DNA from: Holosporales bacterium
GTDB lineage: Bacteria; Pseudomonadota; Alphaproteobacteria; UBA3830; JAIRMZ01
DNA length: 24,578 nt
Direction: 5' to 3'
Assembly (NCBI GenBank): GCA_031258355.1
Contig: JAIRMZ010000033.1
Coordinates: 1 to 24,578 of the forward strand
Shown piece by piece: positions 20,743-24,578 of the stretch (the stretch's first letter is position 1; the number at the start of each line of letters is the position of its first letter). Both the position numbers and the translations under genes were made by a program. The notes beneath the pieces were generated by a model. It was not told the DNA's origin. It saw nothing but the letters and a program-made list of their open reading frames with translations, and did no database searches.

Positions 20743-21084
20743 GTATTCAGGCGTGCTATCATGAGAATGCTTTGCAGTCGATACAGAAGAATATTTTTAA
20801 GAAAGATGATGGTTATCTTAAAGATTGTGCGATCTAACAATTATTGGATTGTGAGGTTAGGAAATGCAGGATAGTTTCAATAAGAAATCTTTGTGCCCTC
20901 TTCATTCTTTATTTTTTGCTATTTCTAAGATCTTTTCTTTATATAAGCATGAATTTTTCTCGCAAAAGGAAAATTATAGAGTTTTTCTTCTTCAAGAAAA
21001 GGAAAGGATTCCTTCGGCCTATGCTCTTATTAAAATGCAGCAAAAGAGATATGTAGCGCTTGTAAGAGAGGGGAGGTCTTTCTT

Positions 21085-21876
21085 GTGAAGATTGTTGCTA
21101 TAGCAAATCAAAAGGGAGGGGTAGGTAAGACGACAACTGCTGTTAATTTATCAGCAGCGCTAGCCGCAACATGTCGACGTGTTCTTCTCATAGATCTTGA
21201 TGCTCAAGGGAATGCAACAAGCTGTCTGACGATAAAACATCAATTTTCCGCGAACAGCTACACACTTCTTATGCAGCAAAATACATTATCGCAGGTCATC
21301 ATACCGACACGCATCCCTGATCTTTTTTTGGTTCCGGCGGTGCCAGATTTGGCGGCACTAGATATAGAGCTTGCAACACAAATGGAAAAAGAAAAAAGAT
21401 TGCACTACGTTCTTAAAGGGGAGGAGAGGCCAAAGATTCAAGAGGGAGAAAAACAAACTTACGACTATGTTTTTTTGGACTGCCCCCCTGGTTTAGGATT
21501 AACGGTTCTCAATGCATTAGTTGCTGCGGATGCTGTTATTGTGCCTATGCAGTGTGATTTTTTTTCTTTGCAAGGCCTCGTACAGTTGTTTTCTACAGTG
21601 CAACGTGTTAAGAAAAATTTCAATAGTCATTTATGTTTTTGTGGGATTGTTTTTACCATGTTCGAGCCGCGGAATAACCTTAATCTACAGATAGCACAAG
21701 ACGTTGAAAGCCATTTTCATGACCTTGTGTTTAAAACAAAAATTCCTCGAAATGTCCGAGTAAGAGAAGCCCCTTCCTATGGGAAGCCAGTACTTCTTTA
21801 TGACCTTCAGTGCAGCAGCTCACTGGCTTATATTGATTTAGCTAAAGAATTTTTGAGAAGGGAGAAAGAGTCATGA
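21085..21876 (+). CDS. parA: Chromosome partitioning ATPase ParA/Soj
   Basis: NQKGGVGKTTT, DLDAQGNA, LDCPPGLG, IPRNVRVREAPSYGKP. GTG start. Confidence 0.97.
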   Translation: MKIVAIANQKGGVGKTTTAVNLSAALAATCRRVLLIDLDAQGNATSCLTIKHQFSANSYTLLMQQNTLSQVIIPTRIPDLFLVPAVPDLAALDIELATQMEKEKRLHYVLKGEERPKIQEGEKQTYDYVFLDCPPGLGLTVLNALVAADAVIVPMQCDFFSLQGLVQLFSTVQRVKKNFNSHLCFCGIVFTMFEPRNNLNLQIAQDVESHFHDLVFKTKIPRNVRVREAPSYGKPVLLYDLQCSSSLAYIDLAKEFLRREKES

Positions 21877-22691
21877 AATCGACTTTAGGAAGGGGATTAT
21901 CAAGTCTTCTTGGTCCAGATATTGCAGAACAAGCATCCTTGCAACTTCTCCCCGTACAAGACCTCGTTCCTAATCCCCTTCAGCCAAGACGTCAATTTGA
22001 TGCTCAATCTATAGAAGAATTATCTGCGTCTATCAAGGAGAACGGAGTTCTTCAGCCCATTATTGTTCGTCAGGACCCAAAGAATCCTACGAAATATCAA
22101 ATTGTCGCAGGAGAGCGAAGATGGCGTGCTGCCGCAAAAGCACAACTCGAGAATATTCCTAGTCTTGTTTGTTTATTGGATGATAAGCAAAGCTTAGGGT
22201 ACGCGCTTATTGAAAATGTTCAACGAGAAGATTTGAATTGTATGGAAGAAGCGGAGGCTTATGCACGTCTAATACACGATTTTGCGTATACACAGGAATC
22301 GCTTTCTCGCACAATAGGCAAAAGTCGCAGTCATATTGCCAATGTTTTACGTCTTTTAAATCTTCCCGATTCTGTAAAAAGTCATGTACGTACAGGTTCT
22401 CTTTCTTTCGGGCATGCGCGTGCTCTTGTTGGGCGACAAAACGCAGAAGAATTAGCGCAAAATATTATCCATAAAGGGTTAACTGTGCGTCAGGCGGAAA
22501 AAATCTCCACTTTTCCTAAAGAATCTGTTTTAGATGAAGAAGCAACTTCTGAAGCTGTGCTCTTGGCGGAGCAGTTAACGCATGCTTTAGGAACACGTGT
22601 CCGTGTACATTTACGTCACGAAGGTGGAATGCTCCAGATTTATTTTCGTGATTTGCAAGGGCTACAACGTTTAATAGATAAATTTTCTTAA
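21873..22691 (+). CDS. parB: Chromosome partitioning protein ParB
   Basis: LGRGLSSLL, PNPLQPRRQF, GVLQPIIVR, IVAGERRWRAA, ENVQREDLN, HTH GKSRSHIANVLRLL. Confidence 0.97.
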   Translation: MKSTLGRGLSSLLGPDIAEQASLQLLPVQDLVPNPLQPRRQFDAQSIEELSASIKENGVLQPIIVRQDPKNPTKYQIVAGERRWRAAAKAQLENIPSLVCLLDDKQSLGYALIENVQREDLNCMEEAEAYARLIHDFAYTQESLSRTIGKSRSHIANVLRLLNLPDSVKSHVRTGSLSFGHARALVGRQNAEELAQNIIHKGLTVRQAEKISTFPKESVLDEEATSEAVLLAEQLTHALGTRVRVHLRHEGGMLQIYFRDLQGLQRLIDKFS

Positions 22692-22825
22692 ATCCATATG
22701 AGGAACCTAGATATTAATAAAAATAAGTTCACGAAGAACAGTCGTTTTTGATCAATAGAATTGTTATTGTCTGCTTGTAAAGGGTTTTTATTCTTTTCCT
22801 TAAGAAAAAACTATTTCCGAAACGA

Positions 22826-22850
22826 TTTTAAGAGAAGGAATCTCTTAAAA
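22826..22850. terminator. Perfect 10-bp stem-loop downstream of parB
   Basis: TTTTAAGAGA-AGGAA-TCTCTTAAAA. AT-rich stem, so it is a weak terminator or a protein-binding site. Confidence 0.35.
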
Positions 22851-24085
22851 GAATACTGAGTTATAGCAGAAAATCGTATAAAAATTTGTTATTTTCTTTC
22901 TTCATGCTCTGGTAGAAGCTCTACAAATGAAGGTGGATTAGCATGTCCCCTTTCCTTCGAAAGGGTTTGCGATCTTGCCTTATAATAATCTAGGAAACTA
23001 AAGGTGCTATCGCCTATATTTCACTGAAGAACGTTCATGATCTTCTTTAGGAGTTTGCCCTTTATGCAGTTTTTCATAAGGCGGTCTTATGAAAATAAAT
23101 TCACGATTCTTTAGTTAGTTGGGAAGCAATCTATTTATATTTCTTATGCTTTTTTTTAGAACAGGTAAATTGCATTTTTGTGTGTGCTCTTGCACAAGAC
23201 AAGGCCGAAAACGGCTTTTATTTTTATCATGAAAGGATAACTTCACCATTATATGGCCTCTTACGAAGCAAAATGACAGAGGAGAAAGTTATTAAGGTGG
23301 AGAACACAATTTCCTTTATTTTAAAACAAGGCAAAGAAAAAAGTCATACTGTTTTCATCAAAAAAACCATCTTCAAAACTAATATATCATTTATCTTGTT
23401 AAGCATCTTTTTCGCAAAAGCATTACTTTGTAGAAAATTTTTGTAAAATATTTCATATATTTTAAGCAGATAGAATTGAAAAAAATCTTCAATGGTGTGA
23501 AATTATAGAATTTCCCTTGTTTATTTGAAAAAATTATAGATCAGAGAAAAGCAAGGTTGTTTATAAAAGACGTTTTTATTCCTAGTAGCAAAGGAACGTC
23601 GATGTAATTTTTATTTTTTTTGTTAGAGAACAAAAGATAAGATAAGATAGTGCAATATTTTGTGGCAAGATGAGAGGGCGCAATAACACCATTTAAAGAG
23701 AAAAACAGACCCATCTGTTCTCCAGGGAAGAAAACTGATCACTTGTGGACGATAGAAAGAACATCGCATAGAACAAAAAGGAGATCAAAGTTTAACGAGC
23801 GTATGTTCTGGAAGATTTTAGTATTCTATCAGTGCATAGCACGGAAATTTGAGAAGGAAATGACTTTGTCTATCAATGGATATATAAAGAATCCTTGTAT
23901 ACTTTATGATACTTTTTCGATTCGGAGGATTTGTATACAAAGAAATGAGATTATGCTCGATATTGCGCTTTAAATCTTATACGAGAACAGAGTAGATTTT
24001 TTCAAATAATGTTACCGAAGTAAGTATTGCTTTCAGTGATTTTGCCACTTTATTTTCTAGATGAAAAACATTTTTCCGTATCCCT

Positions 24086-24259
24086 TCAGAAAACATCATC
24101 CTCCTCCTCCACGCTAGCGTAATGCACTTGCAGGAGGGAGCGAACGGCCGGGTCTAGTGTCGTCCCACAATTGATCTGGATTCATTTCCCAAAAAGCCTT
24201 TATAGCGCTGAATCGCCACCCCCCCCTTACGCGTCTGCTCAAGAAGGGTCCGCTATCTC
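24086..24259 (-). pseudogene. gyrB: Decayed, truncated copy A of the gyrB 3' end
   Basis: Reads LLEQTRKGGVAIQRYKG, then after frameshifts MNPDQLW and LDPAVRSLLQVHYASVEEEDDVF-stop. Confidence 0.8.
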
Positions 24260-24513
24260 TCAAACGTCCACGTCGGCCACTTTGAGAGCGTTTTCCTGGA
24301 TAAAATCACGCCGCGGTTCGACCATATCTCCCATCAGCATCGAGGAAATATCACCAACCTCCTCCACGCTAACATAATGCCCTTGTAAGAGGGAGCGAAC
24401 GGCTGGGTCTAGCCGTTCCCACAATTGATCTGGATTAATCTCTCCCAAGCCTTTATAGCGCTTAATCGCCCCCCCCCCCCCCCTTACGCGTCCTGCTCTC
24501 AGAAGGGTCCCTC
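24260..24513 (-). pseudogene. gyrB: Decayed copy B of the gyrB 3' end
   Basis: AIKRYKGLGEINPDQLWERLDPAVRSLLQGHYVSVEEVGDISSMLMGDMVEPRRDFIQENALKVADVDV-stop. One codon is lost in the ETTLDP motif; G15 run; no genuine start. Confidence 0.85.
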
Positions 24514-24578
24514 TCAAGCGTCCAAGTGGGCCACTTTGAGAGCGTTTTCCTGGATAAAATCACGTCGCGGTTCGACCA
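24514..24578 (-). CDS. gyrB: gyrB C-terminal fragment, copy C (end of the intact gene or another repeat unit; truncated by the window edge)
   Basis: VEPRRDFIQENALKVAHLDA-stop (TGA at 24514-24516). Confidence 0.6.
   Translation of the reverse strand, partial: VEPRRDFIQENALKVAHLDA

Follow-up and report, generated by a model that had tools for sequence, protein, structure and literature searches.

Tandem copies of the gyrB 3' end at a contig terminus are most likely an ordinary duplication relic in a small decaying alphaproteobacterial genome

What is a repeated gyrB 3' end doing at the extremity of a bacterial contig: is it a working genetic system, the scar of inserted elements, an assembly artefact, or the leftover of a neutral duplication? 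The window analysed here (24,578 nt, the entire contig C1 of its assembly) terminates on the minus strand, at 24088-24578, with a head-to-tail array of a 254-bp unit that comprises the last ~84 codons of gyrB, the stop codon and 6-11 nt. An array of about 254 bp with at least three copies had been put forward in the original prediction, and the period was borne out both by TRF, which reports a single array at 24103-24578 (period 254, 1.9 copies, 85% matches, 6% indels, score 694), and by BLAST of the array region against itself, which gives 84.0% identity over 244 nt (E = 3.6e-69), far beyond chance. Three units are indeed present; their description is refined to one functional tail, of which 70 nt lie in the window, and two pseudo-copies. 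Along the minus strand the order is the gyrB tail (copy C), copy B, copy A, an AT-rich stretch and the 3' end of parB. What the sequence shows is a gyrB gene that is intact and, beyond it, the 3' end of this gene in two incomplete, non-functional copies.

Copy C (24514-24578, minus strand) holds the last 20 gyrB codons and the TGA stop codon (24514-24516), the body of the gene being found on another contig, C46. Copy B (24260-24513, minus strand) is a complete 254-bp unit, with the junction, the last ~84 gyrB codons and a TGA at 24260-24262. It carries an open frame of 85 codons (24260-24517) containing the motifs INPDQLW, QGHY and GDIS, and a poly-G run of 15 nt (24469-24483, minus strand; a C-run on the plus strand) that stands where the true gene has GGGAATGA; downstream of this run the copy stays in frame, with one 3-nt deletion. 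It was placed by tblastn at 24266-24475, and is 88% identical to the true tail (BLAST, 190/215). Copy A (24088-24259, minus strand) is a truncated unit made of the junction and ~50 codons, devoid of the stop codon. It reads EMNPDQLW before the frame shifts, contains an internal TGA, and ends at ...GATGATGTTTTCT, ~30 codons short of the gyrB stop, with 86% identity to the true tail (BLAST, 138/161, 7 gaps). Its poly-G run is 8 nt long (24219-24226, minus strand; again a C-run on the plus strand) and occupies the position homologous to the run of copy B. The earlier details of motifs, frame status and poly-G length (8 in A, 15 in B) were all reproduced, as was a stop-to-internal join common to both junctions, each of which reads TGAGAG...GGACCCTTCT...ACGCGTAAGGGG, the gap from one stop codon to the next unit being only 6-11 nt.

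The suggestion that copy C might belong to a full gyrB could be followed to contig C46, where a 796-codon ORF ends with its stop codon at C46:6-8, 5 nt from the contig end. The last 70 nt of C46 and window positions 24509-24578 are identical at 69 of 70 positions, and because of this agreement copy C, which had been said to look like a true C-terminus, is, or is nearly identical to, the terminus of that gene. In tblastn, copy C and the true tail share 95% identity. C1 and C46 are likely neighbours: the regular contig-end overlaps of this assembly measure exactly 119 nt, whereas that of C1 and C46 is 70 nt long and contains one mismatch, an atypical overlap that makes the adjacency likely rather than proven. 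The physical continuity from the true tail through B to A is based on one assembly. The break between the two contigs lies ~25-30 nt from the G15 run and was presumably caused by the long homopolymer together with low coverage; further, or near-identical extra, gyrB-tail copies may be located there. The mismatch itself falls 13 nt upstream of the stop codon and opposes a C in C1 (window position 24528, His) to an A in C46 (C46:21, Asn), Asn being the residue conserved at this codon in relatives. Possible reasons for it are polymorphism among strains, an error close to the G15 run and the presence of another near-identical copy.

By their sequences, A and B are paralogous copies and not imports. 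When their DNA is aligned with gyrB tails from four relatives of the same family, both group with the gyrB of their own genome, and they are 86-88% identical to the true tail, compared with about 75-79% for the orthologous tails of relatives G001-G004. Moreover, the unit start has derived bases in both A and B (GGACCC, versus AGACTG in the true gene), and both carry the poly-G expansion of the GGG found in the Arg-Lys-Gly codons; the branching order is therefore ((A,B),true). This derived junction and poly-G, shared by two copies that each have private substitutions and indels, agree with the earlier proposal of one duplication that was later amplified and whose copies decay independently. At third codon positions the true tail differs from B by 20% and from its relatives by 51-60%; the duplication therefore postdates the genus split, that is, the split from the congeneric genome G001, and the single gyrB tail of G001 fits this age. 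The gene downstream of gyrB differs among the family relatives examined and, since this synteny is not conserved, the ancestral flank is not reconstructable.

The changes were polarised in the ~125 nt that are common to the true tail, A and B. The true tail has three private changes (0/0/3 at first, second and third codon positions), all synonymous, and no other damage. Copy B has 13 (2/4/7) besides its 3-nt deletion, and copy A six (3/1/2) together with frameshifting indels and the 3' truncation. Several replacements in copy B affect residues that are invariant in four relatives, namely Q to K, M to I in GEMNP, and F to S. Transitions and transversions stand at 22:8 and 13:7, as in genuine mutation. 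The synonymous share of copy B is statistically indistinguishable from 0.28, the value expected under neutrality (P = 0.11-0.18, with low power for B alone). The extra copies A and B are under relaxed constraint; given its open frame and some excess of third-position changes, copy B could once have been constrained.

With substitutions at all codon positions in both A and B, neutral amplification fits best among the four origins that had been listed for the array, and a neutral tandem duplication, then amplification, then decay is probably the correct reading. A segment of ~254 bp, consisting of the last ~84 codons, the stop codon and a few bases, would have been duplicated head to tail by replication slippage or by unequal exchange at a short homology; the junctions are too decayed for a microhomology indicative of slippage to be called. 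Unequal recombination between the two units would then have added a third, and the junctions would therefore be identical, while a later deletion would have taken the distal end of the outermost copy, A. Selection would have kept only the unit fused to the gyrB body. A and B, lying beyond the stop codon, would be left to drift, acquiring substitutions at all codon positions, frameshifts and an in-frame deletion, with GGG growing to G8 or G15. Beyond making the 3' untranslated region of gyrB about 430 nt longer, the array probably has no effect.

The array was searched for in other genomes at several depths. A second tail match was found in none of the 57 other species-level genomes of the order, nor, up to 3 kb downstream, at any of 80 other alphaproteobacterial gyrB loci. 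With the gyrase-B C-terminal domain model (PF00986), nearly all of 400 genomes across the class gave one or two matches, two being presumably what gyrB and parE would give, and five gave three; among these five, only genome G367 has two tails adjacent (1/400 in the class). An unpublished genome of the class sample, G097, has the ordinary two matches. The genome carrying the array also has two in the PF00986 HMM search, the true tail and presumably copy B. The junction pattern had no match in JGI metagenome contigs, and a protein scan of JGI metagenomes revealed no close relatives, identity reaching at most ~40% over the full query. When the copy B product and the full GyrB were looked up exactly in public assemblies, only the genome's own record came back, and a homology search with copy B found, apart from itself, no variant above 68% identity. 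A scan of genome contigs retrieved distant alphaproteobacteria only (best 60%, an uncultured Rhodospirillaceae MAG, then 58%, a Candidatus Finniella MAG), none of these matches having a second tail within 3 kb. A limited text search of the literature on gyrB duplication or pseudogenes, or on the run accession, gave nothing relevant.

Two observations were made alongside these searches. Five short stand-alone GyrB C-terminal proteins encoded on long contigs were inspected: four are gyrB genes called in pieces, most simply because of frameshifts or assembly errors, and the remaining one, on contig L018, is a true second tail. Furthermore, the relatives of the order (G001-G057) have one gyrase-B C-terminal domain or tail match each, versus two in most other alphaproteobacteria, which suggests that parE, encoding topoisomerase IV subunit B, is missing from the entire order.

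An assembly artefact would consist either of allelic gyrB tails from co-existing strains strung together, or of a low-coverage mis-join near the long homopolymer. The genome is a metagenome bin of 724 kb in 115 contigs, 63% complete, the array sits at a contig end whose overlap with C46 is imperfect and atypical, a G15 run is difficult for short-read chemistry, and other duplications of the bin, such as the in-frame, 93%-identical case on contig C30 described below, could be allelic. All this would suit an artefact, yet A is frameshifted and truncated and B is altered at residues invariant in four relatives, and with such damage no living strain could have either one as the tail of an essential single-copy gene. 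In a test for false haplotypes, the copies were indeed not plausible as functional alleles, given the frameshift, the truncation, the radical replacements and the non-genic junction sequence. The stop-to-internal junctions hold sequence that is absent from the true gene and must therefore exist in the reads, and assemblers do not create a divergence of 12-16%. Moreover, a Logan contig of run SRR14710907, produced by another assembler, is 100% identical to window 20979-24163, a segment that spans the spacer/copy A border. Because alleles of an essential gene cannot look like A and B, we regard an artefact, one of the origins originally listed, as quite unlikely. A functional array is more improbable still, and very much so. 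It would be either a store of variant GyrB C-termini on which gene conversion could draw, as had also been suggested, or a structured or slippage-prone (poly-G) 3' untranslated region regulating gyrB. Copy B still has its open frame and presumably accounts for the second PF00986 match, the poly-G length differs between units, and RNA of the array is predicted to fold slightly more stably than shuffled sequences do (z = -2.46). Against this, terminator and promoter signals are no higher than in shuffles, copy A is broken, no relative shares the array, and we know of no need for C-terminal variation in GyrB, a housekeeping enzyme. Nor is there any sign of conversion in this one genome, where the true tail differs by its three synonymous changes and the variants private to A or to B are all absent from it.

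Insertion at the gyrB 3' end is the third alternative: an element with homology to the gyrB tail would have entered, on one or several occasions, through a single crossover or site-specific recombination, duplicating the tail, and its cargo would later have been lost. A gyrB-tail direct repeat flanking foreign DNA does exist in an unrelated alphaproteobacterium (L018 / G367), and the downstream border of gyrB is rearranged, with a neighbour gene that varies among the relatives examined. Between the units of the array, however, there is no cargo, only the 6-11 nt, and the homologous junctions would call for a duplication or amplification of the unit under insertion as well. The ten largest ORFs of the window, a part of the ORFs in its 24.5 kb, contain no recombinase, integrase or transposase according to Pfam. 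The AT-rich spacer (22692-24087, 31-35% GC, no ORFs), which lies between parB and the array, outside the repeat and bordering copy A, has no recognisable remnant of an element either. Searches of this spacer returned no Pfam match reaching the cut-off, small ORFs included, and thus no integrase or transposase, no tRNA, no gyrB-like remnant, no homologue in 10 relatives, and no Rfam match reaching the gathering score, with one sub-threshold snoR99 hit (E 0.78, 27 bits versus 41). Recurrent use of the site is also opposed by the counts of adjacent second tails given above (0/57 genomes of the order, 0/80 loci, 1/400 genomes of the class). With neither cargo, nor a recombinase in the ORFs scanned, nor a second tail in any relative, the scars of integration and excision originally envisaged seem an unlikely origin, and a neutral duplication that was amplified and then decayed is preferred.

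The locus in the unrelated alphaproteobacterium, of ~70% GC, was found twice, as L018:3779-6300 (ENA ERZ25072258 ctg8075) and as G367:C1:700343-702741. There, a full gyrB is followed by a 1.9-kb insert of 39-49% GC and then by a second gyrB tail, the two tails forming a 314-bp direct repeat with 311/314 identical positions. Within the insert lie an ORF of 62 aa and the gene for a protein of 512 aa that has cytidine-deaminase / MafB19-like deaminase domains. No recombinase gene was found within the insert, and the called flanking genes have no recombinase Pfam family. The locus looks like a recent homology-mediated insertion at the gyrB 3' end.

Known systems offer three points of comparison. 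Tandem segmental duplications and gene remnants occur in reduced or decaying bacterial genomes, for example those of obligate intracellular alphaproteobacteria. The array resembles these in being head to tail with one shared junction, in having one copy under selection while the rest decay by substitutions, indels and truncation, in being lineage-specific, and in having several similar cases in the same genome; it departs from them in that the repeated segment, present in three units, is the 3' end of an essential gene, and in that a homopolymer has expanded at one common site in the two dead copies. Genomic islands, prophages and integrative elements displace the 3' ends of genes and leave attL/attR duplications at tRNA, tmRNA and some protein genes. 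As in such duplications, a partial 3' end lies downstream of the intact gene, G367 / L018 being an example at gyrB, whereas the present array has no cargo, no recombinase in the ORFs scanned, directly adjacent repeats and identical junctions. Silent-cassette conversion arrays are represented by pilS/pilE, vls and msp2-type systems. Here too partial, promoterless copies adjoin the expressed gene, but the target is a housekeeping gene, the copies number two, of which A is truncated and out of frame, and neither conversion tracts nor conservation of the array are seen. Thus the array is most likely an ordinary lineage-specific relic of tandem duplication in a small decaying genome, and not a new genetic system.

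As such, it documents an ordinary evolutionary leftover and in itself matters little. Since gyrB is a common phylogenetic and typing marker, pseudo-tails of this kind deserve attention because they can be mis-called as genes, and because they can break assemblies. A public protein collection already lists copy B (24260-24517, minus strand) as P0001, a protein of 85 aa bearing a gyrase-B C-terminal domain; this copy is a pseudogene fragment that is likely to be annotated as a gene by mistake. Furthermore, the array, the other duplications of the genome and its G-runs may hint at a lineage-specific mutational tendency.

The same genome (G000) contains at least four further tandem duplications at gene ends, ranging from 187 to 331 bp. 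One comprises the last ~45 nt of groEL and its terminator hairpin (C92:1370-1821, 238 bp, 83% identity). Another concerns the 5' end of a gene at C30:12403-13500 (331 bp, 93% identity), whose product has a CxxxCxxC motif that, read from the translation, we take to be radical-SAM-like; additional weaker matches nearby suggest a third copy, and this 93%-identical, in-frame duplication might be a strain-allele artefact. Two more are 5'-end duplications, at C37:3712-4231 (247 bp, 89% identity) and C24:10792-11204 (187 bp, 88% identity).

Runs of G or C are also in excess. There are 55 runs of at least 8 nt in the 724 kb, up to 15 nt long, for ~10 expected from composition by our own estimate. Of those of at least 9 nt, 13 fall within long open frames and 15 elsewhere, even though these frames make up 87% of the genome. 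The excess is also seen in the congeneric G001, and is absent in G002 and G003, which represent two other genera of the family. Growth of G-runs in unconstrained DNA thus appears to be a mutational habit of the genus, and the G8 and G15 of the dead copies, versus GGGAATGA in the live gene, fit such genus-wide growth without selection. It is conceivable, and rather doubtful, that the gyrB-tail array, the other gene-end duplications of 190-330 bp and the excess of G/C runs are joint symptoms of one lineage-specific process. This would be either a defect of replication or repair under which template switching and G-run expansion are favoured, or a process in which small cargo is time and again inserted at gene ends through homology and then lost, the gyrB locus of G367 being an intact example. 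Were either single process real, the genus would provide a natural model for the origin of short tandem duplications.

Some minor features of the window and of the genus complete this description. Examples of G/C runs are found at window positions 17398, 10395 and 24469 and at loci L192-L211 of G001, and some runs lie directly before start codons, where they resemble extended Shine-Dalgarno sites. The spacer next to the array (22692-24087) and a second stretch at 15600-17750 are both AT-rich (26-35% GC), 1.4-2 kb long and without ORFs, and may represent decayed genes or foreign DNA, the rest of the contig being gene-dense with 45-55% GC. BspA-type LRR_5 proteins with coding repeats of 141/144 nt are frequent in both genomes of the genus; they are encoded at window 3083-4477, on contigs C11, C26 and C109 of G000, and at L193, L195 and L203 of G001.
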